Source: Candidatus Yanofskybacteria bacterium CG10_big_fil_rev_8_21_14_0_10_36_16 (GTDB lineage: Bacteria > Patescibacteriota > Minisyncoccia > 2-02-FULL-40-12 > IGHO2-01-FULL-4-A). Taken from it: 64,000 bases of DNA. The notes below the pieces were generated by a model, which saw nothing but the letters and a program-made list of their open reading frames with translations, did not search any database and was not told the DNA's origin. Below, in pieces: positions 7,420-55,855 of the stretch (position 1 is its first letter; every line of letters begins with the position of its first letter). The position numbers and the translations under genes were made by a program. Location of the stretch: positions 97,213 to 161,212 of the forward strand of contig PCXQ01000004.1 of NCBI GenBank assembly GCA_002794035.1, written 5' to 3'.

Positions 7420-7518
7420 GATAAAATATTTAAGATTAAAATTTAAAAAATAATTGACACTTATGCTATTTTATACTAAAGTTTTATTAGTACATTTAAG
7501 ATCAGCGGAGGTTAACCT

Positions 7519-7734: not shown

Positions 7735-7758
7735 GCCCGTAAAGGGCTTTTTATTTTT
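7733..7758 (+). terminator. Rho-independent terminator (agccc-gtaaa-gggct + TTTTTATTTTT)
   Basis: Hairpin followed by T-run directly after stop of 7519..7734. Confidence 0.5.
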
Positions 7759-7782
7759 ATTAACTATTACTTATTAATTATG

Positions 7783-26207: not shown

Positions 26208-27830
26208 TTATATTTCATCTGCATAATCACCATGAACCCATCCCCATTCGTTGAATCCCTTTTTAATTTTGTACCAGCCATTTTCAACATCAACAAACGT
26301 GTATTCTTCTCCAGGCAAAACTTGTCCCAAAACATCATACCCCGTAGAAGAACCACTTCTTACTCTCAAATATCCTATACCCTGAACAACCCTTAGTTTA
26401 CCGCCAATTCTCATTTGGGCAAATTCTTGTCCTGATATTACCTGCACATCGGCCCAACTATATCCCGCCGCGTTAAATTCTGCTTCAGTCCTAACCCATA
26501 TCAATGTCCCGTCTTCTCCTTGAACGTAAACTTTCGGATCATTTGTTTTCCTAAAGAGCTTGGTCGGCATATCCGATGGGGCAATTTGAAGTGCTGCAAA
26601 TTCCGGTCCTGATATTACCTGCACATCTTCCCATTTGTATCCGGCGGCATTGAAATCTTCCAGCGTACTAACCCAATGAAGCACACCATCACCTTCATCT
26701 ACATAAACTTTGGGATCGGCAACTTTTCTGAACAGTTTAACTGATATTACCGGTGCAGGGGTCGGGCTTGCTGTTACTATGGGTGTCGGAGCCGGACTAA
26801 CCACAGGGGTAGGCGTTGGTGTGGGTGTTGGTGTAGCAAAAGGTGTTCCTCCCCCACCGCCAGCGCTTTTTTTAGAGGCAACAATAGTAACCGTGCTTTG
26901 TGCGTCACTGCCAGTTGTTCGGTCTGTATAGGTTCCTGTTTTAGTATCCAAATCGTAATGTGTTACAGAAGCAGTAGTCTCCGTATCAGCTATTGGAACA
27001 GCACAAAAATAATCCCCATAATTAGCACCAGTTCCAGCTGTACAGCTCGTACCTAAGCTGTCACCTGCCGTAACAATACCTGTGGAAAGATTTGTTGTAC
27101 CGCCGGATACCTGAAGAGTTACCTTAACACCAAAAGATAAGCCCGCTGTATCAATATCAGAATCCTGAGAAGAATCAAAGTCAACGCTTTGTGATGCAGT
27201 TGCTGAAATTGTTAAAGCCGCTGATGTTCCATTAATATAACCATCAGCACCTCCCGCAATAGTCCCACCACTGGTTGACCCTGCAATATATTTCTTACCT
27301 CCACTATATGACTGAGAAGCAACCGTACCACTATAAGTAGCTGAGGCAGTAGTGCCATCCAGAGTCAAGGTGTTGCCAAGTTCATCCTCGATACCATTTA
27401 CAACTATGGAGTAATCCATGCTCGCCAAAGCGCTGAACGGGTCACTGGCCGAGGCCGGAAGCGCGACTGTAAAATCTCTGGTAACCCAGCCATCAAGGGA
27501 AGCTGAACCAGTAATGGTGTCGCTAGTTCCAAAAATACAACCAGCATCGGTCATTTCCTTTGACGCGGAAGCAACCTTAATAATACCATCCGCTGCTTGA
27601 GTGCTTTCTGAGGCCGTATTGTCAGTTATTGTTCCGAGACCGCTACCACATGAAAAGTTTATGGTAACCCCGTTATCATTTAAAACATCTAGTTCTGTAT
27701 CAATTCTAAAAAACACAAACTCACCAGCATCTGCCGCATAAGTTTCTCCCGGAATTAATATTACTGCAAATAAAAAAACAACAAAAACTGCTAATAAATT
27801 AAAACTCCACCTAACTAAACTGCCTTTCAT
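26208..27830 (-). CDS. Secreted surface protein with Thr/Pro-rich linker, tandem 50-aa repeat domain and C-terminal SH3b-like domain
   Basis: Signal peptide; TPFATPTPTPTPTPVVSPAPTP linker; duplicated KLFRK..DPKVYV...FNAAGY..DVQVISG repeat; C-terminal SH3b-like segment. Confidence 0.55.
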   Translation of the reverse strand: MKGSLVRWSFNLLAVFVVFLFAVILIPGETYAADAGEFVFFRIDTELDVLNDNGVTINFSCGSGLGTITDNTASESTQAADGIIKVASASKEMTDAGCIFGTSDTITGSASLDGWVTRDFTVALPASASDPFSALASMDYSIVVNGIEDELGNTLTLDGTTASATYSGTVASQSYSGGKKYIAGSTSGGTIAGGADGYINGTSAALTISATASQSVDFDSSQDSDIDTAGLSFGVKVTLQVSGGTTNLSTGIVTAGDSLGTSCTAGTGANYGDYFCAVPIADTETTASVTHYDLDTKTGTYTDRTTGSDAQSTVTIVASKKSAGGGGGTPFATPTPTPTPTPVVSPAPTPIVTASPTPAPVISVKLFRKVADPKVYVDEGDGVLHWVSTLEDFNAAGYKWEDVQVISGPEFAALQIAPSDMPTKLFRKTNDPKVYVQGEDGTLIWVRTEAEFNAAGYSWADVQVISGQEFAQMRIGGKLRVVQGIGYLRVRSGSSTGYDVLGQVLPGEEYTFVDVENGWYKIKKGFNEWGWVHGDYADEI

Positions 27831-28107: not shown

Positions 28108-29157
28108 ATGACAATCCTATACTTAAATTTTACTAAAAACATACACGCAAGAGATGCGGTTTATTTAAATGGTCTAAAAGAAAATGGGGTAAAAATAATT
28201 GAATGCATAGATAGCACTCCGGGCTGGGGAAAATACAAAAGATTATACAAGGAAATAAAAAAAAGAAATAATAACTATGATTTTGTAATGGTTGGCTACA
28301 CGGGTCATGTTTTGGTTCCCTTGGCGAAACTGGCATCCCAAAAACCCATAATATTTAACGCACTCGCCTCTCTTTACGAAGGCATCATAATTTCCCGTTC
28401 ACAGGCAAGCAAACTTTCATTTAAATCGCTTTACGTATGGTTAATTGATTTTATTTCTTTTAGGCTATCTAAAATTGTTCTTGTTGAGTCTAATGCTCAA
28501 AGAATATTTTTAAGCAAAAAATTCTTATTACCACCCCAAAAATTCTTAGTTACATGGACTGGCGTTGATGAAAACGAATTTAAATACAACCCGGAAATTA
28601 AAAAAATATCAGATTTTACCGTTTTATTTCGTGGAGGATTTTTACCAGAATCAGGAATTGAATATGCAATTGAAGCAGCCGAAATATTAAAAGGTGAAGA
28701 TGTTAAATTTAGAATATTGGGCTCAGGACAAATGGAAAATCTTGTTAAGCAAAAACTAAATTCATTTGATTCAAAAAATGTTGAGTGGATAAAAGAAAAA
28801 CTACCCATGAAAGAACTTATAACAAAAATGCAGGAATGCCACTTAAGCTTGGGCCAGCTTTCAAATCATGACCGCCTCAAAAGAACCATACCTCATAAAG
28901 CATTTGAGAGTTTAGCTCTTAAACTCCCATACCTAACTGCTCGCAACGAAGGGGTAATGGAACTTCTTGAAGAAAACAAAACCTGCTTAGCTTGCAATCC
29001 AGCAGATCCACACGATCTAGCAAAAAAAATATTGTGGGTAAAAACCCACAAAACAGAAGTTGAAAAAATAACAGAAACAGGTTACGATTTACTTCATATA
29101 AAATTGTCTCCCTGCATATTAGCAAAAAAACTTTTAAATAACCTAGATGTCAAATAA
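28108..29157 (+). CDS. Glycosyltransferase family 1 (GT4-like)
   Basis: GT-B C-terminal domain with EX7E-like region; start at internal ATG 28108 (ORF begins GTG 28009). Confidence 0.7.
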   Translation: MTILYLNFTKNIHARDAVYLNGLKENGVKIIECIDSTPGWGKYKRLYKEIKKRNNNYDFVMVGYTGHVLVPLAKLASQKPIIFNALASLYEGIIISRSQASKLSFKSLYVWLIDFISFRLSKIVLVESNAQRIFLSKKFLLPPQKFLVTWTGVDENEFKYNPEIKKISDFTVLFRGGFLPESGIEYAIEAAEILKGEDVKFRILGSGQMENLVKQKLNSFDSKNVEWIKEKLPMKELITKMQECHLSLGQLSNHDRLKRTIPHKAFESLALKLPYLTARNEGVMELLEENKTCLACNPADPHDLAKKILWVKTHKTEVEKITETGYDLLHIKLSPCILAKKLLNNLDVK

Positions 29158-30421
29158 GAAAACAATTGAAAGAAATACCTGCAGAATATCCGGCGAAAAG
29201 CTGGTTGATTTATTTTCTCTAGGAAAGACCTATGTTTCTGATTTTTTAAAACCAGAAACAAAACCCAAGTTACCCCCTATTGAATTAAAAATGTGCCTAG
29301 CTCCAAAATCAGGGTTAGTTCAATTATCACATACTGCACCAACAGACGAAATGTATAGAGAATATTGGTACAAATCAGGCACCAACGCAACAATGACAAA
29401 AGAACTTGAAGAGATAGCAACAACCGCTCAAAGATTAGCAAAAACAAAAAAGGGCGATGTTTTTGTAGATATTGGTTGCAATGATGGCACTTTATTAAAA
29501 TTTATAGACAAAGATTTAATACGCGTTGGCTTTGACCCTGCTAAAAACGGGTACAAAAAACTATCTTCAAAACACGCTAATTTAATAGTTGAGGATTATT
29601 TTAACTATGAAGCTTTTAAAAAGAGCAGATATGGCAAACAAAAAGCAAAAATAATAACCTCTATTGCGATGTTTTATGATTTAGAAAACCCGGATAAATT
29701 TATAAATGACATAAACAAAACAATGGACAAAAACGGGCTTTGGATAGTCCAAATGAGTTACTTACCTTTAATGCTTGAGCAATTGGCATTTGATAACATA
29801 TGCCATGAACATGTAGAGTACTACAGCTTGACTGCAATGAAATATTTATTAAATAGGCACAACATGAAAATAGTTGATTGCCAGGTAAATGATGTAAACG
29901 GAGGAAGCGCTAGAATATTTATTAGAAAAAAAGATGCTGATAATCATACATTTGCCACTGCTCCTCATAGAGATGTTGCCAACTATAGAGTAGCTTCTAT
30001 ATTAAGCCACGAAAAAACCTTAAACTTAAACAAAAAAACGGTATATCTTAATTTTTATAAAAAATCATTAGAACTCAAAAGAAAAACAGTTAATTTTATA
30101 AAAAAAGAAAAAAACCGTGGCAAAACAATATGGGGTTATGGGGCCTCAACGAAAGGCAACACACTACTCCAATGGTTTGGTCTTGATAATAATTTAATTG
30201 ATGCGATTGCCGAGAGAAACCCTGGAAAATATGGATTAAAAACAGTTGGCACAAACATACCCATAAAATCAGAATTAGAAATGAGAAGGGCTAAGCCAGA
30301 CTATTTGCTTATTTTACCTTGGCATTTTATTCGTGAGTTCAAGGAACGTGAATCTGAATACCTAAAAGGGGGTGGCAAATTTATTGTGCCATGCCCAGAA
30401 TTTGAAATAATAGAAAGTTAA
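29147..30421 (+). CDS. SAM-dependent methyltransferase, TylC3/NovU-like C-methyltransferase family (paralog of 23022..24260)
   Basis: N-terminal Cys-rich zinc-ribbon, MT core DIGCNDG, conserved C-terminal domain. Confidence 0.65.
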   Translation: MSNKKTIERNTCRISGEKLVDLFSLGKTYVSDFLKPETKPKLPPIELKMCLAPKSGLVQLSHTAPTDEMYREYWYKSGTNATMTKELEEIATTAQRLAKTKKGDVFVDIGCNDGTLLKFIDKDLIRVGFDPAKNGYKKLSSKHANLIVEDYFNYEAFKKSRYGKQKAKIITSIAMFYDLENPDKFINDINKTMDKNGLWIVQMSYLPLMLEQLAFDNICHEHVEYYSLTAMKYLLNRHNMKIVDCQVNDVNGGSARIFIRKKDADNHTFATAPHRDVANYRVASILSHEKTLNLNKKTVYLNFYKKSLELKRKTVNFIKKEKNRGKTIWGYGASTKGNTLLQWFGLDNNLIDAIAERNPGKYGLKTVGTNIPIKSELEMRRAKPDYLLILPWHFIREFKERESEYLKGGGKFIVPCPEFEIIES

Positions 30422-32986: not shown

Positions 32987-33187
32987 GTGAGCCTACTGAA
33001 AGGAAACTACAATTTACCAAAAAAGAAAGAAGGTAAAGAAAAGAAAGATAGGGAAAAAGATAAAAGTCTAGAAGAAGAATTTGAAGCAGCAGCACTTAAA
33101 AAACTAGGTGGAAGTATTACTTTTGTTAAAAAGGGCAAAGGTTTTGTACATGGCACAAAAACAAAAGAAAACAAGGGAGAAGAATAA
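32987..33187 (+). CDS. Small Lys/Glu-rich protein (66 aa), GTG start with AGGAG RBS
   Basis: RBS ataggagaaacaagaGTG; stop overlaps start of next gene (ATGA). Confidence 0.3.
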   Translation: MSLLKGNYNLPKKKEGKEKKDREKDKSLEEEFEAAALKKLGGSITFVKKGKGFVHGTKTKENKGEE

Positions 33188-34188
33188 TGTCTCTAGGCAA
33201 AAAACTCTCTCTTAAAATTGGTGAAGCAACGGCCCTTAAAACAGAGTCAATTGGATTAAAAAACGCCAAAAGAAATGCCCCCTATTTCAGTAACACAGTA
33301 GAAGATTTGGCCGTTTCAAATAAAGAAGCGGCCATTGTTATAGTTGGTGGTCCTAGTTTACACAGAAAAAACCCTGTAGAAAAAATATTAAATTCTAATT
33401 TTAAGGGTGATATTGTAACAGCAGATGGTTCTTTAGGCTATTGCTTAAGAAATGGCTTAGTTCCAGATTATGTTTTGTGCTTAGACCCTCATCCATATAG
33501 AATTGTGCGATGGTTTGGAGACCCCGACTTGGAATCAAGACCTGAAGATGATTATTATTCGAGACAAGATTTAGACCCAGAACATTGGAAAGATGAAAAA
33601 AAATGGAATAAAGAACTAATTAAACTTGTAAATCATCACGGCCCAAGAATAAAAGCCATCCTTTCTACTAGCGTAGACACCACGATAACCAAGCGTTGTA
33701 TTGAGGCTGGTATGGAAATATTTTGGTGGAACCCACTCTATGATGATATTGATGAACCAAACAGTGTCGCAAAAAAATTAAATGATGAAACCGGAATTCC
33801 TTGTATGGTAACGGGTGGCAACGTTGGTACCGCCTCTTGGATATTTGCCCACGCAATACTCAATAGAAAGCATGTTGCTTTAGCTGGAATAGATTTAAGC
33901 TATGCTCCGGGAACGCCCCATAGAAATACCCAATATTATTATGAGCTAATTGAACTTTTTGGTGATAGAGCGCCTGAGGCATTTATTGATATTTATAATC
34001 CCTACTTAAATGAAACTTGGTTCACAGATCCAACATATTATTGGTTTAAAAATGTGTTTCTAGAATTAGCCCCAGAAGCCAACTGTACAACATATAATTG
34101 CACGGAAGGTGGTATATTATTTGAAGATCCAATTAAATTTATACCTATGTCCGAATTTCTTTATAAATTTACTGAGAGAGGAGAATAA
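33187..34188 (+). CDS. DUF115/MptE-like (Maf-type motility-accessory-factor family) putative glycosyltransferase
   Basis: IVIVGGPSL ... TADGSLGYCLRNGLVPDYVLCLDPHP matches PF01973 core (GPSL...P-D-y-v-s-l-D). Confidence 0.6.
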   Translation: MSLGKKLSLKIGEATALKTESIGLKNAKRNAPYFSNTVEDLAVSNKEAAIVIVGGPSLHRKNPVEKILNSNFKGDIVTADGSLGYCLRNGLVPDYVLCLDPHPYRIVRWFGDPDLESRPEDDYYSRQDLDPEHWKDEKKWNKELIKLVNHHGPRIKAILSTSVDTTITKRCIEAGMEIFWWNPLYDDIDEPNSVAKKLNDETGIPCMVTGGNVGTASWIFAHAILNRKHVALAGIDLSYAPGTPHRNTQYYYELIELFGDRAPEAFIDIYNPYLNETWFTDPTYYWFKNVFLELAPEANCTTYNCTEGGILFEDPIKFIPMSEFLYKFTERGE

Positions 34189-34189
34189 G

Positions 34190-35812
34190 ATGGCAAAAGT
34201 ACTGTTTGTTAACCCAACTGTAAGACAAGAAGACAACCCCCTGCACATCCCTTATGGAATTGCCCTTTTGGCTGCAATATCTGACAAGAAAGGCCACCAA
34301 GTTCAAATCTTAGATGCAAACGCATGGAGACCTGATGACGACGAACTGCGTGAAGCAATAAAATCAGATAGATGGGATGTAATAGCTATAGGAGGAATTA
34401 CCACGACATATGGATACACTAAAAAAGTTTTAAAATATACAAAAGAAGATTCTCCAAAATCATTGAGAGTTATTGGCGGTGGCATATTAACGAGTATGCC
34501 ACAAGACATGATGAAACTAATCCCAGAAATAGACATTGGGGTTATTGGAGAAGCATTTGTAACTTTCCCTGAAATTCTAGAAAAAATTGATAAAAAAGAA
34601 CAAAACTGGGAATCTGTTTTAGGTATTATATGGAGAGATAAATATGGAAAATCCCACCTGAATCCAGAGAGGGCTCTGATTTCAGATCTTGATCAGCTTC
34701 CCTACCCAGCATGGAACATGCTACCCATGAAAGAGGTGTATTTCAAAAATAGTTCCCTTCTCTACAGCGAAGAGGCATATAGCTCCAAAGTAAGAATGGA
34801 TATAAACGGAAGTTTCGGTTGTCCATTTATATGTCGTTTCTGTTTCCATCTTGGTCTTGCTGGTGATTTGCATTACGACAACCCTAACAATGATCAAGCT
34901 GATACTATTTTTACACACAACAGAATAAACAGAGTCCACAGCCCTCATTATCTAGTAAAAATGGTAAAGTATATGCGAGATAATTATGGAACTGACTTTG
35001 TTTTATTTTTTGATGAGAATCTATTGGCAATGAATGTCTATATGAAAAACCAATGGTTGCCTGAAATCTGCCGTTTGTGGATTGAGGAAGGATTGCAACC
35101 ACAATGCACAAAAGATAACGTCCCACATGATCCTAAAAAATGTAAAGGTGTCCACTGGGGTGGAACAAGTCATGCAACGCTTGCCAACCCTGAACTACTT
35201 GCGCAAATGCATGAAGCTGGCTGCTCTCAACTCTTATATGGTTATGAATCATTTTCTAAAAGGATTCTAAAAAATGTAGGCAAAGGCGCCACTCCACAAA
35301 CCAATGAACGCTCACTTCACATGACCCTAGATGCTGGAATTAGACCAATCCCCAATCAAATGATGGGGTTCCCTGATGAATTTTTTGACAGTTTAATTGA
35401 CTGCGTCAATGCCTGGGAAAGAATGGGCATTGTTGTAAAACCATTTTTTGCCACTCCATATCCTGGTTCCGAATGGTATTATAAGTATAAAGATAAGATT
35501 CTTGAGCAATACGGCTACTCGGGCAATAGAGAATCTGATTACCTTGAAGCTCTAGATGCCTTTTTGATAGATCTTGGTGATGCTACAAAAATTACAGCTA
35601 CAATTTCACAGTACTTTACACCTGTTGAATTGCTGGGCCTTAGAGAGCTCATGGTAAATCGTGCTATTAAAAGAATAAAAGAATATGAAAAACACTGGAG
35701 GAGTCTCCACAACATTCATGGAGAACCCTCTTTTGATGATGTTAAATGGGCTCCAGCCCAACAAAAAAGAAAGGACGCTGGAGCATCTCAATTAGCTAAT
35801 ATAAAGTTATGA
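34190..35812 (+). CDS. B12-binding domain radical SAM protein (class B radical SAM, likely methyltransferase)
   Basis: N-terminal cobalamin-binding-like domain; radical SAM CxxxCxxC as CPFICRFC; start at 34190 after RBS gagagaggag. Confidence 0.8.
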   Translation: MAKVLFVNPTVRQEDNPLHIPYGIALLAAISDKKGHQVQILDANAWRPDDDELREAIKSDRWDVIAIGGITTTYGYTKKVLKYTKEDSPKSLRVIGGGILTSMPQDMMKLIPEIDIGVIGEAFVTFPEILEKIDKKEQNWESVLGIIWRDKYGKSHLNPERALISDLDQLPYPAWNMLPMKEVYFKNSSLLYSEEAYSSKVRMDINGSFGCPFICRFCFHLGLAGDLHYDNPNNDQADTIFTHNRINRVHSPHYLVKMVKYMRDNYGTDFVLFFDENLLAMNVYMKNQWLPEICRLWIEEGLQPQCTKDNVPHDPKKCKGVHWGGTSHATLANPELLAQMHEAGCSQLLYGYESFSKRILKNVGKGATPQTNERSLHMTLDAGIRPIPNQMMGFPDEFFDSLIDCVNAWERMGIVVKPFFATPYPGSEWYYKYKDKILEQYGYSGNRESDYLEALDAFLIDLGDATKITATISQYFTPVELLGLRELMVNRAIKRIKEYEKHWRSLHNIHGEPSFDDVKWAPAQQKRKDAGASQLANIKL

Positions 35813-35817
35813 TAATA

Positions 35818-35845
35818 AATACCCCACAGGGGTATTTTTATTTTT
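35818..35845 (+). terminator. Rho-independent terminator (atacccc-aca-ggggtat + TTTTTATTTTTT)
   Basis: Hairpin + T-run directly after rSAM stop. Confidence 0.55.
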
Positions 35846-37448
35846 TAGCTTTAACAATTATATTCCCGGAATACAAGAGTTTATCATCACCACTCAATAT
35901 TTTGGCCAGTATTTTTTGTAACAAACGTATTGGCATACTTTTTCTGACTCTGTTGGGGTAAACTCTTATTTCAGAAAAGCCAGCTTGACTAAGCAATTGA
36001 ATAATTAATGCTTTTGTATAAGCCCACTCATGAGTTAAATCTGAAAACAAGGTATGAATGCCATGAATACTATCAGCGTTTGGCATCTCTGCCACAAACA
36101 CACCCCCTTTTTCAAGATTTTTAAATATTAAATTCAACAACTCAGGCACGCGTTCTTTTTTTATGTGTTCAACAACATTTATAGCCGTAATAGCGCCGTA
36201 GTTTTCGCTTGAAGCTTTTTTTAAATAATCTATGATATCTCCCGTATTAATATTTTTTAAACCAAATTTATTCTTAGCATAATCTGTAAAATTTTTTACA
36301 ATATCTACACCCTCATAATTTTCATATCCCTGTTTTCGGCAAAAATCTAAAAATAGACCGAATCCACATCCAAGATCAATTATTTTTTTAGATTTATCCT
36401 TGGGCAATAAAGGCAAGATAAGATCATGGTAATCTTTAACTCGGGTTTTAATAAGATTCTCATCAAACATCTCATAAGTACTTTCGTAAACAACAATTTT
36501 TTGAGGTTCACTATATCCTAAATCATCTTTCTCATATTCAATATTTTTTATATCTTCTTTTTTGTTTAGGTTCATTTCATTTGATTGTATATCATGATTC
36601 TTTATAATCGACACACACGCAACAGCAGAAGCCCCTGCTATTTTGTTTAATTTCTCGTGCAAGCCAATATAACCATAAGAAGAATTATCACATTTACCAA
36701 CTTCAGATTTTTGCCAACCATTTTCAAAATATTTAAAGTAAGATACAGAACCCTCGTTATTAAAAGGCTCAATTAATCTATGGACCATTTGTTTATTAAA
36801 TTGTTGGAAAAATCCATGATTTTCATATTTGCCAAAAGGTACAGTAATTAATAATTGCCCTCCGGGTTTTAAAACTCTTTTTAATTCTAAGATTGCTTTT
36901 AAATAATCCTTACTACTGTTTTCATTATATTTATCTCCTGTATTATAAATCTCTGAATTGTCCATACCCACATGTTCGAGTGTTGAAATGCAAGTAATTG
37001 CATCAAAAAGATTATCCCTAAAAGGAAGATCCCGAATATCACCAAAAACATAAGAAACCCCTTTCCGCCAAAAACAATTTGATTCAGGCGCTAAGGTTGT
37101 AATTGTTATTTCTTTATTTTTTAATTTCTGATGATATAACAAAACCTCAAAATTTAAAGCCGAACCAGCATCTAATAATTTGCCAGATTCTTCAGATAAA
37201 TTAGCTAAAATCCATGGGTATTCAACAATTCTTTCATCAACACCCAATCCATAGCCACTAGACAAGTTACCTTTGTAAAATTTTTCCAATAGATCTTTAT
37301 TTTGGATGTTCCCTTTTATTTCTTTCCATTTGTACTCAAAATAACCCTTACTCCAAGGTTTCTTACCTCTTGTTTTATATAAATCAATTACCAACCACGC
37401 CCTGATTTTTTTATAAAATTTTAATAATTTAAAAAATATTTTCTTCAT
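35838..37448 (-). CDS. Fusion of two class I SAM-dependent methyltransferase domains
   Basis: Domain 1 LKPGGQLLITVP; domain 2 IIDLGCGFGLF...GGVFVAEMPN. Confidence 0.7.
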   Translation of the reverse strand: MKKIFFKLLKFYKKIRAWLVIDLYKTRGKKPWSKGYFEYKWKEIKGNIQNKDLLEKFYKGNLSSGYGLGVDERIVEYPWILANLSEESGKLLDAGSALNFEVLLYHQKLKNKEITITTLAPESNCFWRKGVSYVFGDIRDLPFRDNLFDAITCISTLEHVGMDNSEIYNTGDKYNENSSKDYLKAILELKRVLKPGGQLLITVPFGKYENHGFFQQFNKQMVHRLIEPFNNEGSVSYFKYFENGWQKSEVGKCDNSSYGYIGLHEKLNKIAGASAVACVSIIKNHDIQSNEMNLNKKEDIKNIEYEKDDLGYSEPQKIVVYESTYEMFDENLIKTRVKDYHDLILPLLPKDKSKKIIDLGCGFGLFLDFCRKQGYENYEGVDIVKNFTDYAKNKFGLKNINTGDIIDYLKKASSENYGAITAINVVEHIKKERVPELLNLIFKNLEKGGVFVAEMPNADSIHGIHTLFSDLTHEWAYTKALIIQLLSQAGFSEIRVYPNRVRKSMPIRLLQKILAKILSGDDKLLYSGNIIVKAKK

Positions 37449-37474: not shown

Positions 37475-38662
37475 CTATCTAAAAAGATAAATCTCGTCAT
37501 ATACATCGTTTACGGGACTCACCAGTCTCCTAATATTTATTCCGCTTTTAATATCATTAAAAAATAATGTCTTATTAAGACCCAGGAGGGGTTCTAATAT
37601 GTTTTTATAAAACCTATTCGCCTTATTAATTTTAAAACTTGCAAGATCTACAAAATCTAAGCTGGCTGTATCAAAATGAAATTTTAGATTCGCATATGTC
37701 ATAAAATTTATTTTTATATTATTTTTAAAATAAGACATCATACAATTTTCAACAAATTCAAAATAACTAAACCCAATCAATATATCAGAAGATTTTACTG
37801 GCAATTTTTTAATTTTATTAGATAATAAAATACTATTTAAAATTGTTTTTGGTTTAAGAGAATAAAAAAATCTTGGTAAAATAATTATTGTATCAAAATA
37901 ATCTCTAATATTTGTTTTGTGTTTCTCAGACCAACGATGATGATTAGAAATTACTAAATTAATCTTTTTAGTATAATCAATTTCTTTCATTAAAATAGCC
38001 AATGCAACAACTGCGGGCACATATCTTGTCTCGGCAACAGACAACCAAACTGAGCCCTTGTTTTTATTAAAAACACCCCTAAGTTTATTTTCCAATATTT
38101 TGTTTTCTTTTATTTCTTTTTGATTATTTACACAGTCAGATCCAATGTTTTTAATAAAAAAATTGTCTGGCATATCCCCAAACCAAAGCTGCATAAAACC
38201 ATAAGTTTGCTCATCAAAACAATTTAAAAACCCCCTAAAAAACACGTGGGAGTTTATCCCGAAATTATAAGAAGATATAGAAGAAGTAGAACAAACAGAA
38301 AAAGTACTATCAATATTTTTTTTATTTTTCCATAAAAAATCCTCTGATGATTCCCCGTTCCTAAAAAAAGTAAAACCATCTAATTTTAACTGTTTAAATT
38401 CATCGGTTTCGTCAGGGTGGGGTTTGTAATACAACTTATGCCCTTTATACTTTTTTTTTATATATTCAAGACATTGATTAGTTTTTTTAACGAATTCTTT
38501 AACATTTAAATTCCTAATATTTTTAAAATCAGCCCCAAAAAAAACAATGCAATTTGGCTCTACTGTGGGAGATTTTTGTTTTTTTTCTAATATATAATAA
38601 GGGTGGGATACCTTAAAAATGTTTTTTTTAGTCCAGTTAACACCACTTTTTTTTAAATACAT
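37475..38662 (-). CDS. Uncharacterised protein family A (paralog of 51373..52575); candidate nonulosonic-acid transferase with HP motif
   Basis: About 40 percent identity to 51373..52575 (shared YKPHPDETDE/YKAHPHETDE, HHRW, RWFYSLKP, SYFKNN, IIEPLLGLN). Confidence 0.45.
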   Translation of the reverse strand: MYLKKSGVNWTKKNIFKVSHPYYILEKKQKSPTVEPNCIVFFGADFKNIRNLNVKEFVKKTNQCLEYIKKKYKGHKLYYKPHPDETDEFKQLKLDGFTFFRNGESSEDFLWKNKKNIDSTFSVCSTSSISSYNFGINSHVFFRGFLNCFDEQTYGFMQLWFGDMPDNFFIKNIGSDCVNNQKEIKENKILENKLRGVFNKNKGSVWLSVAETRYVPAVVALAILMKEIDYTKKINLVISNHHRWSEKHKTNIRDYFDTIIILPRFFYSLKPKTILNSILLSNKIKKLPVKSSDILIGFSYFEFVENCMMSYFKNNIKINFMTYANLKFHFDTASLDFVDLASFKINKANRFYKNILEPLLGLNKTLFFNDIKSGINIRRLVSPVNDVYDEIYLFR

Positions 38663-38670: not shown

Positions 38671-39663
38671 TTATATAATTTTTTCTATTTTTTTTACATT
38701 TATATTATCGCTGGATGAAAATTTTAAATCTGTGCCAATTTTTTCAAAACCGTCATAAAACCTTGGTGCAAAATCAAGATTGTGAATACTGCTTGTGGGC
38801 ACAAGCACGAACATTTCTTTATTGGACCATATTTCTTTATTCCAATCATTGTCACCAGCAAGATCCTCATGTAATTTATCACCAGCGCGGTCTCCTATAT
38901 ATTTTATTTTTATATTTCCCCTTGGATAATATTTTTTTATAAAAATATTTGCCAAATCACCCATGCTGGCTGATGGCATTTTTAAAATAAATATTTCACC
39001 TCCTTGAGATAATTGTGACGCCTTAAGAATTAATTTAATAGATTGTTGTATAGACATAAAAAATCTAGTAGCGTCTTTGTTGGTTACTTTAATTTTACCG
39101 CCAACTTCTGCCTGCTTCTTCCACATTGTCAAAACTGATCCATCCGACCATGCCACATTACCAAATCTAACACATGAAAGCTTAATCTTGTCTGATAAAT
39201 AAAAATTAGAATTTATAAATAATTTCTCCATCATTAATTTTGAAACACCCAACACATTAAAAGGATTAGCAACCTTATCTGTAGAAATAGCAATTACTTT
39301 TTGTACTCCATTGTGTAAAGCAGCATCTATAATATTATGCGATCCAATAATGTTTGTCTTCATGGCTTCGGATGGATTATATTCACAAAAAGGCACATGC
39401 TTAAGTGCTGCTGTATGAAAAACCACATCAACCCCCTTAAATGCAAGCTGCAATCTATCTCGGTCTCTTATGTCACCAATAAGCATACTTAAATTTTTAG
39501 GATATTTAAGCTTTTCTAAAAGGTTATATTGTCGAGTTTCATTTCTAGATAAAACTCTAACCTGCTTAGGGTTAAACCTTAAAATCTGCATTACTAATTC
39601 TGAACCAACACTACCAGTTCCCCCAGTTACTAAAATTGTTTTCCCAATAAATTCGTTAACCAT
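38671..39663 (-). CDS. UDP-GlcNAc 4,6-dehydratase, PseB/LegB/CapD family
   Basis: ILVTGGTGSVGSEL, HTAALKHVP, ISTDKVANP motifs of PseB/FlaA1 family. Confidence 0.8.
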   Translation of the reverse strand: MVNEFIGKTILVTGGTGSVGSELVMQILRFNPKQVRVLSRNETRQYNLLEKLKYPKNLSMLIGDIRDRDRLQLAFKGVDVVFHTAALKHVPFCEYNPSEAMKTNIIGSHNIIDAALHNGVQKVIAISTDKVANPFNVLGVSKLMMEKLFINSNFYLSDKIKLSCVRFGNVAWSDGSVLTMWKKQAEVGGKIKVTNKDATRFFMSIQQSIKLILKASQLSQGGEIFILKMPSASMGDLANIFIKKYYPRGNIKIKYIGDRAGDKLHEDLAGDNDWNKEIWSNKEMFVLVPTSSIHNLDFAPRFYDGFEKIGTDLKFSSSDNINVKKIEKII

Positions 39664-40771
39664 TTTTTAAAATATTAATTAATTTTTTACTTATAATTTT
39701 TATGTCTTTTTCTTTTAACCCGATATAAAATGGTAAGGCCAAAGAAGAATCACTTACTAATTCTGAAACACTATAATCCCCCTTTTTATAACCAAACATC
39801 TTTTTATAAAAACTAAACAAATGTATAGAAGGCAAATATGGCTTAGTGCTTATTCCAATTTTTGCCAACCTCAACATAATGTTATCCCTCTTTACTCTAG
39901 TATACCCCTTCAATCTAACAACATATACAAACCAAGTATGCTTATTATTAGGTCCCATTTGAGGCAAAATTATCAAATCATCGTGTTTAGATAAATATTT
40001 ATTATAAAGCAATGCTATTTTTTCTCGTTCTCTTAATAAAAAATTGAGTTTGTCTAGCTGGGTCAGACCAAGAGCCGCACTCATTTCATCCATTCTATAA
40101 TTATATCCAAGCCTCTTGTGGTCTAACCAGCGCATATCTTCTGCCCTCCCTTGGTTTCTTAAACTCCTACATGTGTTGTAAATCTTTTTTGAATTTGTAA
40201 CCAACATTCCACCCTCTCCTGTTGTTATTTGTTTGTTTGGGTAAAAAGCAAATACAGCAGATTCTCCGAATGTTCCCGCATTTTTATTTTTATACTTAGC
40301 TCCGATAGACTCACAAGCATCTTCTATAATTTTAAGGTTGTGTTTTTTTGCTATTTTTTTTATTGAGTCCATATCTGCTGTTTGACCAAAAATATGAACT
40401 ACCAAAATAGCTTTTGTATTTTTTGTTATTTTTTCCTCTATTTTTTGAGGATCAATATTGTAAGTTGCAGGATCAATATCTACAAAGACTGGCTTTGCAT
40501 TAACATATAATATGCAGTTTGCTGAAGCAATAAAAGAAAAAGGCGATGTTATTATTTCATCGCCAGATTTTATTTCCGCTGCAATCATGGCCAAGTGTAA
40601 TCCTGCAGTACCACTAGACACAGCACATGCATATTTAACTCCTATAATTTCAGCGAATTTTGACTCAAATTTATTTATAAAAGGTCCGATACTCAAGATA
40701 CCAGAAGTTAAAACATTCTGAATGTTTTTTTTCTCTATATTTGTTATGAAAGGTTTTGCGATTAGATACTT
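39656..40771 (-). CDS. DegT-family PLP-dependent aminotransferase (PseC/LegC-like)
   Basis: DegT fold; likely start MKYLIAKPF at 40771 (ATGA overlap with upstream gene). Confidence 0.75.
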   Translation of the reverse strand, partial: KYLIAKPFITNIEKKNIQNVLTSGILSIGPFINKFESKFAEIIGVKYACAVSSGTAGLHLAMIAAEIKSGDEIITSPFSFIASANCILYVNAKPVFVDIDPATYNIDPQKIEEKITKNTKAILVVHIFGQTADMDSIKKIAKKHNLKIIEDACESIGAKYKNKNAGTFGESAVFAFYPNKQITTGEGGMLVTNSKKIYNTCRSLRNQGRAEDMRWLDHKRLGYNYRMDEMSAALGLTQLDKLNFLLREREKIALLYNKYLSKHDDLIILPQMGPNNKHTWFVYVVRLKGYTRVKRDNIMLRLAKIGISTKPYLPSIHLFSFYKKMFGYKKGDYSVSELVSDSSLALPFYIGLKEKDIKIISKKLINILKNG

Positions 40772-41550
40772 CATCTGTTTAAACGATTGGATAAATATTT
40801 TAAAATCTTTTTGTTTATTAATGTGACTTCTTGATCTCCTATAATTAATTTCGCACCGCAATAAGGCGGAAAGAAAAAAGCTCTTATTTTTCTATCCATC
40901 TCTTCGGCACTGTCTTCGTTTAAATTAATTTCTTTGTTTCTTTCAAGATCTTTTTTGCTCCAATAAACACCCCCTAAATTTGAAGTGGTTATTACTTCAT
41001 CACCTTCAATAAATAGTTGAATTACCTCCTTAAATAATTCCAATAAATAATCTTGCGATTTCTCCTCCAAAGAAAGTGCATTCTCTGTAACGGGGCTTAT
41101 TGGAAATTTCTTGACTTTAATAATCGGGCCAGCATCAAATTCTTCAGAATCAATAAAATGAGCGCTAACTCCATAATCCTCTCTTTTGTCTAATATTGCC
41201 GTATTATACCCTGCACGCCCCTTATAATCTGGCAATGGGGCAGGATGAAAATTAATACACCCTACTTGAGGTAAATTAATTAGAGGGTCTCTTATTCTCT
41301 TCCAATATAGATAAGAAATAACCAAATCAACATTATTAATTGATGTGTCCTTTTGTCTAATTAAATCATAAATATAACCCTCTGTTACAATAGGAATACC
41401 CAATGCTAAAGCAGTATCCTTTAATTTGATTTTGAAAGCCTCATTGGGATCAGCAACCACAAAAGGTACTTCTATACCGTTATTCAACAACCATTTTAAT
41501 GCCATTGAAGCACCAGGTTTTCTCCCCATTAAAATAACTTTTTTAATCAT
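40771..41550 (-). CDS. Formyltransferase-domain protein (putative sugar N-formyltransferase)
   Basis: N-terminal formyl_transf domain with INFHPAPLPDYKGRAG (HxSLLPxxRG-type) motif. Confidence 0.65.
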   Translation of the reverse strand: MIKKVILMGRKPGASMALKWLLNNGIEVPFVVADPNEAFKIKLKDTALALGIPIVTEGYIYDLIRQKDTSINNVDLVISYLYWKRIRDPLINLPQVGCINFHPAPLPDYKGRAGYNTAILDKREDYGVSAHFIDSEEFDAGPIIKVKKFPISPVTENALSLEEKSQDYLLELFKEVIQLFIEGDEVITTSNLGGVYWSKKDLERNKEINLNEDSAEEMDRKIRAFFFPPYCGAKLIIGDQEVTLINKKILKYLSNRLNR

Positions 41551-41628
41551 AGTGTCATCTCCTTTTTCCTTTTAAATTAACTACTTTCATTAAGATATAA
41601 TTAAACAACCCTAAAGTCAACAGCAACC

Positions 41629-42783
41629 CTAAATCTTAGCATGGGTAAATTTTTTATAAAATAAATTGTTTTTATTAATATTTTTTTCTAAAATTTTAAC
41701 AATCTTTTTGCTGGCAGTACCGTCACCATAAGGATTTTTAGACTTAGAAATAATTTGTTTAAAATCCCTGGACAAAGCTATGGAAATTGCTTTTTTAATA
41801 TTTTTAAAAGTATAATCACAATTTACAACATTTTCGGCATGTTCCCTGCCCAGCTGTCTATTACCAACATTTACCACCGGAAGTTTAAAAAAACTTGATT
41901 CCATGATTCCCGAGCTTGAATTTCCAATCATAATGTCAGCATGCTTCATAACATTAAGGTAAATTTCTCTATCTAAATTTTTAAATATATGAAATTCTTT
42001 ATTTCCTCTGTATTTATTTATTTCACTTATTATAATATCCTTACCAGTATCTGAATTTGGATAAATTATAATTTTTTCTCCATCCTCCTTTTCAATAGCT
42101 TTCAAAAGTGGCTCAATTTGATTAACAAATGAAATATTATCAAGCGGTGTAGGATGCTGAATCATTAAAAACCACTTTTTATTAACTTTTAAACCCAGTT
42201 TAGTAGCCAATGTTTTTTTTGGCACATATTTTAAAACCCTGGCTTCATCAAGACCTGGAGCCCCCACCAAGAAAACCCTATTTTTTTCCTCTCCCAAAAG
42301 AATAATTCTTTTGTAGCTTTTTGGAGTTGCAGCAAAATGCAAATGGGCAAATTTTGTAATAGAATGTCTTATATACTCATCAACAACATGCCCAGTAACA
42401 TCCCCTCCGTGTATATGCCCAATGGGTATTCTTAAATGAGAACCTACGATGGCACCGGCAAATTGCTCGCCCCTATCACCCAAAACAAGTATCATATCAG
42501 GTCTATTTTTCATGCAATATTTCTTTATACCTATTACATCATTAGATAAGGCATCCATCATATCACTATTATAAGGTGTGTTTATAATACACTTTATAGG
42601 AAACCCATCTTTTTTTATATCATTTATTGTAAACCCAAATTTTTTTTGAGTATGCATTCCAGTAACCAACAATTCTGGCTCTAATTTGTTGCTAATTTTA
42701 ATTTCCTTAATAACTGGCCTAAACAAGCCATAATCAGCTCTTGTTCCTGTAATTATTAAAATTCTTTTTTTATGTTTAGACAT
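41629..42783 (-). CDS. UDP-N-acetylglucosamine 2-epimerase (hydrolysing), NeuC/LegG family
   Basis: GDRGEQFAGAIVGSHLRIPIGHIHGGDVTG NeuC-type motif. Confidence 0.8.
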   Translation of the reverse strand: MSKHKKRILIITGTRADYGLFRPVIKEIKISNKLEPELLVTGMHTQKKFGFTINDIKKDGFPIKCIINTPYNSDMMDALSNDVIGIKKYCMKNRPDMILVLGDRGEQFAGAIVGSHLRIPIGHIHGGDVTGHVVDEYIRHSITKFAHLHFAATPKSYKRIILLGEEKNRVFLVGAPGLDEARVLKYVPKKTLATKLGLKVNKKWFLMIQHPTPLDNISFVNQIEPLLKAIEKEDGEKIIIYPNSDTGKDIIISEINKYRGNKEFHIFKNLDREIYLNVMKHADIMIGNSSSGIMESSFFKLPVVNVGNRQLGREHAENVVNCDYTFKNIKKAISIALSRDFKQIISKSKNPYGDGTASKKIVKILEKNINKNNLFYKKFTHAKI

Positions 42784-43858
42784 AGTGTGCTTTCTTAATC
42801 AAAGTATCTTTTTTTATGTACTTAGTAGATTTTTTACCCAAAATTAAATTAAAATATTTTGGCGGAAGTCCATTGCCGGGTCTTTTCACGCCAATATTTT
42901 TTTCAGAAAACAAGTCTCCCTTTTTAATATCTTTTGTAGCTACTACACTTTTTGCTGCAGCTTTTATAATTGTTTTTTCGTTGAATGTTAAAGTTTTTTC
43001 TCCAGAACCCAATGCTTGTTCTATGTTTCTAATCGCCTCCACTAATCTTTTTAGCTCATCCGGTTCCAAAGATGCCTTATGATCAGGACCTGGCAAATTT
43101 CTATCGAGAGTAAAATGTTTTTCTATTACACAAGCCCCCAAAGAAACTGCCGCAACAGCGGCCTCTATACCAAGGGTATGATCTGAATACCCAAAAAGTA
43201 CATCGTTTTTATTCCCGAGCGTTACCATGGCTCGTATATTAGCTTGGTCAAAAGGACATGGATAACTTGTTGTACACTGGAGTACAACAAGTTTATTATT
43301 CCCGGTTTTCCTAATAGCTTCTATAGACTCTGCAACAGAGTTTAAATCCTGCATCCCAGTAGAAAGGATTACGGGCAATTGCCATTCAGCCATCTTAGAT
43401 AAATATGGAATATTGTTTGCATCAGAAGAACCAACTTTTATTGCCTTAACCTTAATAGACTTTAAAAAAAATGCATCATCTAACGAAAAAGGCGTAGATA
43501 AAAAAAACAATCCTTTATCTTCAGCATATTTTTTAAGTTTCCTGTGCCATGACCTGGGTAACATTAATTTTTTTAGCATTTGATAATGGCTTTCTTTGCC
43601 TATATTTTTACTCTGATATTTTGCTTTGGGAGCATTTTTGATAATTAATGTTTCTGGATTAAATGTTTGAAATTTAATAGCATCTGCTCCGGATTTAGAA
43701 GCTATACTTATTAATTTTTTAGCCATCTTAAAATTACCATTATGATTAACTCCTGCCTCGGCTATTATGAAAGCTTTATGTCCTGGGCCAATTTTTATGT
43801 TCCCTATTTTTATAAATTTATTAAATTTTTCCATGTTAGATTGTCCAACCACCATCAA
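42776..43858 (-). CDS. Nonulosonic acid synthase (NeuB/LegI/PseI family)
   Basis: IAEAGVNHNGNFKMAKKLISIASKSGADAIKFQTF NeuB signature plus C-terminal SAF domain. Confidence 0.85.
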   Translation of the reverse strand: MMVVGQSNMEKFNKFIKIGNIKIGPGHKAFIIAEAGVNHNGNFKMAKKLISIASKSGADAIKFQTFNPETLIIKNAPKAKYQSKNIGKESHYQMLKKLMLPRSWHRKLKKYAEDKGLFFLSTPFSLDDAFFLKSIKVKAIKVGSSDANNIPYLSKMAEWQLPVILSTGMQDLNSVAESIEAIRKTGNNKLVVLQCTTSYPCPFDQANIRAMVTLGNKNDVLFGYSDHTLGIEAAVAAVSLGACVIEKHFTLDRNLPGPDHKASLEPDELKRLVEAIRNIEQALGSGEKTLTFNEKTIIKAAAKSVVATKDIKKGDLFSEKNIGVKRPGNGLPPKYFNLILGKKSTKYIKKDTLIKKAHYV

Positions 43859-44594
43859 TGACTAAATTGTGACCTGTTATATAGCCAGAATCATCTGATG
43901 ATAAAAATAAAAATGCTCCAACTAAATCACTCGGTCGAGCCATTCGATTGCCTAATAAAACTTTTTTAGAATAATTTTTTATAAATTTTTGGGGTTGATT
44001 ATTAAAAACCCCCCCAGGAGACAAAGAATTAACCCTTATATTATATTCACCTAAATAACTGGCTAGGTATTTTGTTAAATTTATAATAGCTCCCTTAACA
44101 GCAACGTATTCTACTGTTGTCCCCATGGCCATGTTCACACCTTTATAAATATCGAATCTTGGAGCAGAAAAACCATAAATAGATGCGACATTAATTATGT
44201 TCCCACTTCTTTGTTTTTTCATTATTTTAGCAACCTCCTTGGAAGTTAAAAAATAGCCACCAAGATGCATCCCCACATTTTCACAAAAATCATCATAAGT
44301 TACATCTTCCATTTTTCTACCATAATTTTTATTTTTTGGATAAGCACTATTTACCAAGACATCGATTTTGCCAAATTTTTGAACAATTTTTTGAAAAGAT
44401 TCTGAAACTGATTTTTCATTTGTTATGTCACATTTTAAAAACAATACTTTTTTAGCAAAAGTTTCCTCAGTCATATCCAAAACTGCAACATTCGCACCAT
44501 TTTCAATAGCTGCATTTACAAAAGCCCCCCCAATAAGACCTGCTCCCCCTGTTATAACAACTACTTTATTTTTTAATCTTAATTTTGGTTTCAT
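43836..44594 (-). CDS. Short-chain dehydrogenase/reductase (PtmA-like)
   Basis: VVITGGAGLIGGA Rossmann and YxxxK catalytic region. Confidence 0.7.
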   Translation of the reverse strand: MKPKLRLKNKVVVITGGAGLIGGAFVNAAIENGANVAVLDMTEETFAKKVLFLKCDITNEKSVSESFQKIVQKFGKIDVLVNSAYPKNKNYGRKMEDVTYDDFCENVGMHLGGYFLTSKEVAKIMKKQRSGNIINVASIYGFSAPRFDIYKGVNMAMGTTVEYVAVKGAIINLTKYLASYLGEYNIRVNSLSPGGVFNNQPQKFIKNYSKKVLLGNRMARPSDLVGAFLFLSSDDSGYITGHNLVIDGGWTI

Positions 44595-55828: not shown

Positions 55829-55855
55829 AAAAAGCGGCCTTGTACCGCTTTTTTA
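55829..55855. terminator. Bidirectional hairpin terminator (agcgg-ccttgta-ccgct flanked by A/T runs)
   Basis: Hairpin + T-run on both strands at stop of GT-C gene. Confidence 0.5.

Follow-up and report, generated by a model that had tools for sequence, protein, structure and literature searches.

The B12-binding-domain radical SAM enzyme encoded in the 64-kb stretch of DNA analysed here (the window) is the third product of a three-gene cassette, not described before, that about 70 uncultivated species carry within operons for sialic-acid-like surface sugars (Table 1). We favour, at roughly even confidence, a reading in which this class B enzyme is the catalytic third member of a three-protein module for nonulosonic-acid (legionaminic- or sialic-acid-like) glycoconjugates. 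The source is a member of the CPR bacteria, as had been guessed from the sequence, and a 100% identical protein, on a 288-kb contig of a Candidatus Yanofskybacteria MAG, and both neighbouring proteins, under Candidatus Yanofskybacteria CG10_big_fil_rev_8, are on record. Our literature search found no paper that connects Maf-like or nonulosonic-acid genes with a B12 radical SAM enzyme, and nothing describing the three-gene cassette.

Table 1. Features of the cassette and of the surrounding sugar island, in window positions.
Feature	Coordinates	Strand	Remarks
TylC3-type C-methyltransferase	23022..24260		PF08421, PF13489, PF08484
TylC3-type C-methyltransferase	29147..30421		PF08421, PF13489, PF08484
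Small conserved protein, 66 aa	32987..33187	+	First gene of the cassette; GTG start
Maf-like / MptE-like (DUF115, MAF_flag10) protein, 333 aa	33187..34188	+	Second gene of the cassette
B12-binding-domain radical SAM enzyme, 540 aa	34190..35812	+	Third gene of the cassette
N-terminal Rossmann-type cobalamin-binding-like domain	34190..34669	+	Residues 1–160; five strands and a beta-hairpin
Radical SAM core	34805..35401	+	Residues 206–404; PF04055 and fold matches
CxxxCxxC motif CPFICRFC	34820..34843	+	Residues 211–218; radical SAM [4Fe-4S] cluster site
GC-rich hairpin followed by a T-run	35817..35837	.	Likely terminator; 9-bp stem AAATACCCC...GGGGTATTT plus TTATTTTTT
Nonulosonic-acid biosynthesis set 1	38671..46585	-	Homologues within 6 kb of the cassette in 27–55 of about 74 loci
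Nonulosonic-acid set 2	48450..51372	-	CMP-sugar synthetase, NeuC-like epimerase, NeuB-like synthase

The three genes (32987..35812) form a translationally coupled operon bounded by opposite-strand genes. An AGGAG ribosome-binding site lies 8 nt 5' of the start of the 66-aa gene, the stop codon of this gene overlaps the start of the Maf-like gene (TAATG), and a gap of 1 nt separates the Maf-like gene from the radical SAM gene. The latter runs on the + strand from an ATG at 34190, preceded at 8 nt by a GGAG ribosome-binding site, to a stop codon at 35810–35812, and encodes 540 aa. We place the start at 34190 because the alternative, a longer GTG start at 34109, would overlap the upstream gene, and because all aligned homologues begin with MAK or MAR. 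The hairpin that starts 5 nt after the stop codon is likely a terminator common to the radical SAM gene and the convergent gene at 35838..37448.

Pfam matches to PF02310 (B12-binding; residues 19–129, E = 1.9e-16, 60.4 bits, cutoff 32.1) and PF04055 (Radical_SAM; residues 206–404, E = 1e-13, 52.2 bits, cutoff 29.5), together with the motif at residues 211–218, confirm the B12-binding domain and CPFICRFC cluster of the original prediction. The 32 homologues compared all keep the cysteines C211, C215 and C218, and both the CxxxCxxC motif and the partial TIM-barrel core fold of the radical SAM superfamily are present. The predicted fold is nearest to TsrM, AprD4, MgmA, CysS, TokK and OxsB, with strands at residues 3–8, 37–42, 64–68, 92–96 and 116–118, a hairpin at 146–149/155–157 and helices spanning 448–507. 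Class 1 cobalamin radical SAM enzymes are laid out as a Rossmann domain, a beta-hairpin, the core and C-terminal helices (PMC13331322), and the model of our enzyme has this class B or 'class 1' (OxsB, TsrM, TokK type) architecture, so the class assignment made at the outset is upheld by domains and fold alike. Within that class, the enzyme reached no characterised-family threshold among the NCBIfam models compared (ApyD, BchE, HpnJ, HpnR, PhpK, KedN5, BzaD, MCR Gln methylase, AprD4 and others); the best scores, in bits against the cutoff, were 89/750 for ApyD, 83/481 for BchE and 79.7/577.6 for HpnJ, followed by 65/282, 51/575 and 49/700. Sequence searches of the PDB, whether started from the single protein or from the family profile, yielded marginal matches only, and a search with the N-terminal domain alone returned nothing useful.

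In canonical base-off/His-on domains (MetH, mutases), a DxHxxG motif supplies the histidine lower ligand of cobalamin, and the original prediction had treated absence of a motif of this kind as a refutation of cobalamin dependence. The motif is absent, and the equivalent loop reads E14-D15-N-P17-L-H19-I-P21-Y22-G23, with His19 invariant. This does not refute cobalamin dependence, because the solved cobalamin-dependent radical SAM enzymes are all base-off and none is His-on (PMC13331322, PMC12931638), so that the motif is not required. Nor does the PF02310 match prove binding, since AprD4 has the same fold without binding cobalamin (PMC12931638). The N-terminal domain is extremely conserved exactly in the cofactor-binding loops and keeps an SxL-like (GGITT) and a GG-like (GGG) motif; these motifs and the invariant loop residues lend indirect support to the view that the enzyme binds cobalamin.

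The second gene encodes a putative CMP-nonulosonate-dependent transferase core. The protein matches PF01973 (E = 4.5e-13) and, weakly, NCBIfam PseD over residues 208–316, and its family profile retrieves archaeal MptE (8sd5, 1.4e-9) and Maf (5mu5, 2e-3) from the PDB. When a fused homologue of 68% identity was modelled with AF2, the blocks of the MptE-like domain had pLDDT values of mostly about 75–98. With the Maf-like model, the sole Foldseek match at E ≤ 1e-3 was the Maf glycosyltransferase 5mu5 (5.9e-8, 319 columns), the next being MptE HPPK and ST8SiaIII; the predicted structure has a central MAF_flag10/MptE-like domain of GT-A-like fold. The nonulosonic acids that Maf proteins transfer come from CMP donors, and the catalytic residues of Maf are Asp324 and Glu415 (bioRxiv 10.1101/2020.06.03.131540). 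There is no flagellin gene among the annotated ORFs of the window.

The 66-aa protein has no Pfam or NCBIfam match. An LKGNY motif lies at its N-terminus and an EFExxALxxLGGSIxFVxK...W module at its C-terminus, with a variable, charged linker between them, and a homologue was detected by motif in 63 related loci. Among 1.84 billion proteins the family has 133 representatives at 50% identity, nearly all of them 45–120 aa long and carrying the motif from residue 1, and the gene has a dN/dS of 0.06–0.27 among 8 Nitrospira loci. In three natural fusions (P0142, P0144 and P0146) the small protein and the MptE-like enzyme form one chain. The AF2 model of P0142 does not place the small module with confidence; pLDDT is below 50 at residues 1–22 and 40–78, because only three fused sequences cover this part. 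The strict conservation of the N-terminal motif looks more substrate-like than adaptor-like and counts against our main model.

The trio recurs in 72 species genomes from about 10 phyla, drawn from 185,579 species genomes, and is complete in all three long metagenome contigs. Across these 72 loci the Maf-like gene is absent only where the upstream DNA is absent. The neighbours of the radical SAM gene include the Maf-like gene in 70 of about 74 loci and, within 6 kb, genes for CMP-nonulosonate synthetase in 55, NeuB in 45 and NeuC in 27. The cassette usually sits between the CMP-nonulosonate synthetase and NeuB genes, as in Nitrospira and Methylomirabilota operons; in a few loci the gene order is permuted, which argues that the linkage is functional and goes beyond inherited synteny. 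Some loci (L003, L004 and L009) have no NeuB or CMP-synthetase gene within 6–8 kb, which counts against our main model. In some Methylomirabilota and Elusimicrobia loci a methyltransferase gene, another ORF and an oxidoreductase-like ORF lie between the Maf-like and radical SAM genes, and these insertions are not conserved.

Annotation of the neighbouring genes in the window supports the earlier placement of the radical SAM gene in a large sugar-biosynthesis island. Set 1 of the nonulosonic-acid genes encodes a PseB-like dehydratase, a DegT aminotransferase, a formyltransferase, a NeuC-type 2-epimerase, a NeuB-type synthase, a PtmA-like SDR, a LegC-like aminotransferase and a CMP-sugar synthetase (CTP_transf_3). 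The two TylC3-type C-methyltransferases named in the original prediction are real, each with three Pfam domains (Table 1). By contrast, the functional link that it drew between them and the radical SAM enzyme did not hold, since just 1 of the roughly 74 loci compared has TylC3-type homologues near the radical SAM gene. It had taken these enzymes together to point to heavily C-methylated sugars, whereas the co-conserved genes are those for nonulosonic acids (Maf-like, CMP-synthetase and NeuB in 70, 55 and 45 loci). We therefore assign the pathway to a nonulosonic acid and not to a C-methylated deoxyhexose.

In the mechanism that we propose, the island would first make a CMP-activated nonulosonic acid, which the Maf-like protein would attach from the CMP donor to an acceptor. 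The helix-hairpin module at the C-terminus of the 66-aa protein would dock on the Maf-like protein, so that the LKGNY tail stays free at the end of a flexible linker. The radical SAM enzyme would then reductively cleave SAM at its C211/C215/C218 [4Fe-4S] cluster and abstract a hydrogen from an unactivated carbon, either in the nonulosonic acid residue itself or in its N-acyl group, with the small-protein tail as a less likely site. Most probably, a methyl group would pass from methylcobalamin to this carbon, with a second SAM re-methylating the cobalamin. C-methylation is the probable chemistry of the enzyme; it is only the most common outcome in this group, because the relatives OxsB, HpnJ and BchE perform ring contraction or cyclisation.

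The conservation of the small protein gives weight to a different reading, doubtful but far from negligible, in which the 66-aa protein is itself the substrate. The radical SAM enzyme would C-methylate or cross-link a residue of the L-K-G-N-Y/F motif, for example at the beta-carbon of Tyr/Phe or Asn, much as B12 radical SAM enzymes act on bottromycin-like RiPPs, which have a C-terminal follower domain. The Maf-like protein would attach a nonulosonic acid to this protein by O-glycosylation, for instance at the invariant Ser of LGGS. The cassette starts with a small, strongly conserved and translationally coupled ORF whose motif lies at a fixed distance from Met1, ahead of a charged linker that varies and a module that is conserved, and both the Tyr/Phe interchange and the invariant Gly-Asn fit chemistry on a side-chain carbon. 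The demonstrated activity of Maf is Ser/Thr O-glycosylation of flagellin (bioRxiv 10.1101/2020.06.03.131540), and the protein glutamine C-methylase MgmA is among the top fold matches. The top NCBIfam match is to a RiPP enzyme, ApyD, and TIGR03975 also scores; however, ApyD, BchE and HpnJ score much alike, each far short of its cutoff. We saw no conserved protease or exporter at the cassette loci, no RiPP recognition element in the radical SAM model and, among the best 120 matches, no sequence in which the small protein is joined to the radical SAM enzyme. The three fusions to the Maf-like enzyme speak against a released or exported peptide; with no conserved protease or exporter seen, they led us to down-weight the exported-RiPP version. 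A further reading, in which the trio is a previously unrecognised post-translational or glycan-priming machine, strikes us as unlikely: the 66-aa protein, in some cases fused to the Maf-like enzyme, would be a tethered arm whose LKGNY tail is loaded with nonulosonic acid by that enzyme and then radical-alkylated, and the radical SAM enzyme might use a MetH-like His-on cobalamin through His19, unlike every solved member. His19 is invariant, and the positions that are Trp, Arg and Asn in TokK, TsrM and OxsB are taken by small residues.

The sugar could also be altered without methylation, by a rearrangement, ring contraction, dehydration or C–C bond formation on the nonulosonic acid or a precursor, with or without use of cobalamin. 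HpnJ (with the glycosyltransferase HpnI and the deacetylase HpnK), OxsB and AprD4 are precedents. We judge this distinctly unlikely: most characterised B12-domain radical SAM enzymes are methyltransferases, and the extreme conservation of the cofactor loops, with GGITT and GGG kept, would be unexpected for a vestigial domain. Two reviews stress methylations among several reaction types of B12 radical SAM enzymes. Least probable by a wide measure is the originally predicted role, a GenK/Fom3-like C-methyltransferase working with the two TylC3-type enzymes on deoxyhexose or aminosugar intermediates. The island does encode those two enzymes and many deoxysugar genes, and GenK and GenD1 are precedents for sugar C-methylation by B12 radical SAM enzymes. 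Against it stand the single locus with a TylC3-type gene, compared with 45–70 for Maf-like and nonulosonate genes, the confinement of the radical SAM gene to its own three-gene operon with opposite-strand genes on its flanks, and the lack of family-level similarity to characterised sugar methylases in NCBIfam.

Nonulosonic acids (sialic, legionaminic and pseudaminic acids) coat bacterial surfaces and influence how hosts, phages and partner cells recognise the bacteria. CPR bacteria live attached to other cells, and their surface has a central place in their biology. A radical SAM step in nonulosonic-acid chemistry was not described in the literature that we searched, and a nonulosonic acid that is C-methylated or rearranged would, if confirmed, add a reaction to those known for B12 radical SAM enzymes and open a new class of sugar modification. 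If the glycan-priming reading holds, CPR bacteria, Nitrospira, Methylomirabilota and further uncultivated bacteria would bear a new kind of modified sialic-acid-like sugar or glycopeptide on their surface. The cassette is a compact three-gene target for heterologous reconstitution. We found no cob, cbi or btu genes within the window. The cassette occurs in several CPR lineages at 68–77% identity, which suggests that the reduced CPR genomes carrying it keep a cobamide-requiring enzyme; if so, cobamide acquisition by CPR bacteria becomes directly testable. A groundwater study counts cobalamin among the few vitamin modules that were not absent from the majority of Patescibacteria MAGs (PMC8672522).

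TsrM, the thiostrepton tryptophan C2-methyltransferase (PDB 6wte), shares 15–16% identity with the radical SAM enzyme (profile E = 3.9e-6); it methylates free tryptophan by a non-radical route and has Arg69 under the cobalt, whereas the cassette family has the small residues G68/G69/I70/T72 in this loop and the invariant His19 in the strand-1 loop. TokK, CysS and ThnK are iterative C-methylases of carrier-linked small molecules, without a Maf-like or small-protein partner, and Trp76 under the cobalt of TokK aligns with the invariant Thr72 here. The second-best structural match, the apramycin 1,2-diol dehydratase AprD4 (PDB 6fd2), has the same architecture at 16–18% identity; it binds no cobalamin and is not a methylase (PMC12931638), which counts against our main model.

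GenK, GenD1 and Fom3 are class B radical SAM C-methylases of unactivated carbons, two of them acting on sugars. In a comparison without a dedicated GenK or Fom3 model or sequence, no specific tie to these enzymes, named as examples at the outset, came to light: the NCBIfam matches lie far below cutoff, sequence similarity in the PDB is marginal, and this group showed no specific similarity and was never nearest. Their gene context is unrelated to that of the cassette. Maf (5mu5) and the second cassette protein share the MAF_flag10/MptE-like domain, and the CMP-nonulosonate genes beside the latter match those of flagellin glycosylation islands. The cassette protein, at 333 aa, is the core domain alone, whereas Maf has about 600–670 aa with flanking domains (632–666 for 5mu5); unlike Maf, it carries an insertion specific to its family, with many invariant acidic and aromatic residues, and pairs with the 66-aa protein and the radical SAM enzyme. 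An analogy in logic is offered by HpnJ with HpnI and HpnK in hopanoid cyclitol ether formation, where a glycosyltransferase and a B12-domain radical SAM enzyme remodel an attached sugar; there the setting is a hopanoid with a GT2 partner, and in the cassette it is a nonulosonic acid with a Maf-like partner.

The ORF encoding the radical SAM (rSAM) enzyme is real, with a 540-aa product. Its ATG lies 8 nt downstream of a GGAG ribosome-binding site, and all homologues in a 32-homologue alignment share an identical MAK/MAR start; a longer alternative from GTG 34109 was therefore discarded. As originally predicted, the protein combines a B12-binding domain (PF02310, residues 19–129, E = 1.9e-16) with a radical SAM domain (PF04055, residues 206–404, E = 1e-13), both over the curated Pfam cutoffs, and the three cysteines of its CPFICRFC cluster motif are invariant among the 32 homologues. 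The guess of a CPR-type genome was also correct: a database entry from a Candidatus Yanofskybacteria MAG, on a 288-kb contig, is 100% identical to the protein, and its two neighbours are listed as hypothetical proteins COV29_02090 and COV29_02095 of Candidatus Yanofskybacteria CG10_big_fil_rev_8. An AlphaFold2 model built on the 32 homologues was confident (pLDDT 84.7, pTM 0.86) and showed a five-stranded Rossmann domain and a beta-hairpin ahead of the radical SAM core, with a helical region at the C terminus, the 'class 1' layout known from OxsB, TsrM and TokK (PMC13331322). In sequence, the protein is distant from all characterised ones: identity to these structures was 14–18%, the family profile matched CysS (E = 1.8e-6) and TsrM (E = 3.9e-6) best, and all 16 NCBIfam matches fell far under their cutoffs. 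Thus, the enzyme is a B12-domain radical SAM protein whose subfamily has no characterised member. Outside CxxxCxxC, residues C306, H313, C318, H322, H328 and C345 are invariant or near-invariant in the family. They could make up an additional metal site, something that class B methylases are not known to have.

In the window, the rSAM gene closes a translationally coupled three-gene cassette that is bordered on both sides by opposite-strand genes. The trio recurred in all three long metagenome contigs looked up. Scanning 185,579 species genomes yielded 72 rSAM family loci, all from MAGs, in Methylomirabilota/Rokubacteria (~24), Nitrospirota (~16), Chloroflexota (~7), Alphaproteobacteria (~5) and, in smaller numbers, Planctomycetota, Elusimicrobia, Acidobacteria, Omnitrophota, Yanofskybacteria and others. 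One contig titled Nitrosotalea sp., an archaeon (L059), has the gene order and high GC of Methylomirabilota/Limnocylindria loci L051, L064 and L075 and is probably mis-binned, so we do not count archaea among the carriers. The MptE-like gene accompanies the rSAM gene wherever upstream DNA exists, the small ORF was found by motif in 63 loci, and database matches were nearly equal (at least 1,473 for the rSAM family among the best 8,000 candidates scored, versus 1,471 for the MptE-like protein). Because L016, L024, L058 and L068 have permuted gene orders and extra genes interrupt the cassette in several Methylomirabilota loci, the association is functional rather than frozen synteny. Several Methylomirabilota loci carry two ORFs, one methyltransferase-like, between the Maf-like and rSAM genes, and one Elusimicrobia locus instead carries an opposite-strand ORF that is oxidoreductase-like by eye; these may be accessory tailoring genes.

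Coordinates of features in the window and of inserts in two other cassette loci
Feature	Position	Strand	Remark
PilB-type T2SSE ATPase, tRNA-Glu(CTC), Mur ligase, class B penicillin-binding protein	170..1417, 5914..5987, 6115..9519	-	left flank
ORF	4189..5292	-	367 aa, no Pfam match
Wzy_C (O-antigen-ligase-like) protein	15682..17997	-	TPR repeats; left island border
TylC3-type C-methyltransferases	23022, 29147		
SH3_3 protein	26208..27830	-	540 aa
Small protein gene	32987..33187	+	66 aa, first of cassette, good ribosome-binding site
MptE-like/DUF115 gene	33187..34188	+	333 aa, second of cassette
rSAM gene	34190..35812	+	540 aa, third of cassette
CPFICRFC motif	34820-34843	+	residues 211-218
Hairpin terminator	35817-35837		after rSAM gene
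Double-methyltransferase-domain protein	35838..37448	-	536 aa
ORF	37475..38662	-	395 aa, no Pfam match
Nonulosonic-acid gene set	38671..46585	-	
Formyltransferase-like gene	40771..41550		
ORF	46656..47234	+	192 aa, no Pfam match
Formyltransferase-like gene	47630..48436		
Nonulosonic-acid gene set	48450..51372	-	
ORF	51373..52575	-	400 aa, no Pfam match
ABC_membrane+ABC_tran exporter	53698..55488	-	near right island border
PMT_2 glycosyltransferase	55853..57529	-	near right island border
Insert between Maf-like and rSAM genes, L050	3922..6008		
Insert between Maf-like and rSAM genes, L048	4483..5679		

The small protein gene is real, as judged by a low dN/dS (0.06–0.27, Nitrospira loci), 133 family representatives at 50% identity among 1.84 billion proteins and a conserved layout of M-x3-L-K-G-N-Y/F, a variable charged linker and EFExxALxxLGGSIxFVxK...W. 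Nearly all representatives are 45–120 aa long, and the motif begins at residue 1. In three independent metagenome homologues (P0142, P0144 and P0146; 410–415 aa) it is naturally fused in frame to the N terminus of the MptE-like enzyme, and so the two proteins work together physically; a fusion model gave no confident placement of the small module. For the MptE-like domain, a model of a 68%-identical homologue (pLDDT mostly ~75–98) had the Maf glycosyltransferase 5mu5 as its sole PDB fold match at E ≤ 1e-3 (5.9e-8), followed by archaeal MptE and then a sialyltransferase. Maf enzymes move nonulosonic acids from CMP donors onto flagellin Ser/Thr (bioRxiv 10.1101/2020.06.03.131540). The MptE-like cassette protein consists of the Maf core domain only, plus a family-specific insertion with many invariant acidic and aromatic residues.

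Counting homologues of window genes within 6 kb of the cassette in ~74 loci, we found a CMP-sugar synthetase in 55, a NeuB-type synthase in 45 and a NeuC-type epimerase in 27. The gene orders in Nitrospira (HTH-GFO-DegT-CMPsyn-[small-MptE-rSAM]-NeuB-NeuC-SDR-SDR) and Methylomirabilota (HTH-[small-MptE-rSAM]-GFO-CMPsyn-Hexapep-GT1-NeuB) are those of a legionaminic-acid-type nonulosonate pathway, and the window itself holds two nonulosonic-acid gene sets. Together, these data place the rSAM enzyme in nonulosonic acid chemistry. Each set has its own NeuB-type synthase, NeuC-type epimerase and CMP-sugar synthetase; with the formyltransferase-like genes, this points to two distinct nonulosonates, or to variants that are N-formylated.

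The glycan island extends over roughly 15.7–58.8 kb and contains three of the four Pfam-less ORFs; the left flank is ordinary housekeeping. The SH3_3 protein, with this C-terminal domain as its only recognisable one, lies within a mid-island GC peak (0.42 versus ~0.33 around). Convergent to the rSAM gene, whose terminator hairpin it shares, lies the gene for a product with two class I SAM-methyltransferase domains; no homologue was found near the cassette in the other loci.

No cob, cbi or btu genes were present among annotated ORFs of the 64-kb window, and a groundwater study found most vitamin pathways missing in Patescibacteria MAGs 'except cobalamin and thiamin' (PMC8672522), so cobalamin auxotrophy is plausible, not established. 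The window enzyme keeps all family-invariant residues and has relatives of 68–77% identity in other CPR genomes, which argues that it is functional there. The enzyme class is already known, and as a B12 radical SAM enzyme in a glycan island this one is ordinary; the searched literature contained no description of the subfamily, of its obligate Maf-like/66-aa pairing or of its nonulosonate-operon place. The cassette offers a compact, testable way into new chemistry of sialic-acid-like sugars and into the use of cobamides by CPR bacteria.

In the best-supported reading, to which we give an even chance, the Maf-like enzyme and its small partner would use a CMP-nonulosonate, and the rSAM enzyme would alter an unactivated carbon, either in the sugar or in its acceptor; the most probable reaction is methyl transfer by way of cobalamin. 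The domains, cluster motif, fold, operon, gene linkage, fusions and taxon were established directly, whereas cobalamin binding, the reaction and the substrate are inferred. The small protein's conserved N-terminal motif could itself be the rSAM substrate, in a protein or RiPP-like modification; we consider this possible though doubtful. Radical chemistry other than methylation, as in HpnJ, OxsB or AprD4, is unlikely. The originally proposed link to C-methylated deoxysugars is very improbable: both TylC3-type C-methyltransferases are real, but such a gene lies near the cassette in only 1 of ~74 loci, versus 27–55 for nonulosonate genes.

Absence of DxHxxG had been proposed as grounds for rejecting cobalamin dependence. 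The motif is indeed absent from the enzyme; the conclusion does not follow, because in all solved cobalamin radical SAM enzymes the cofactor is bound base-off and has no His as ligand (PMC13331322; PMC12931638). Nor is the Pfam B12 match proof of binding, since AprD4 has the same fold and does not bind cobalamin (PMC12931638). The predicted cofactor loops are very strongly conserved in the 32 homologues: E14-D15-x-P17-x-H19-x-P21-Y22-G23 after strand 1, the SxL-like G68-G69-I70-T-T72 after strand 3 and the GG-like G96-G97-G98 after strand 4. In the solved enzymes, the residue beneath the cobalt comes from the post-strand-3 loop (OxsB Asn186, TsrM Arg69, TokK Trp76; PMC13331322; PMC12931638). 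TokK Trp76 aligns with the invariant Thr72, so that no bulky residue is predicted to fill the space under the cobalt; the loop supplying the ligand in MetH here contains the invariant His19, and a MetH-like, His-on mode of cobalamin binding may apply.
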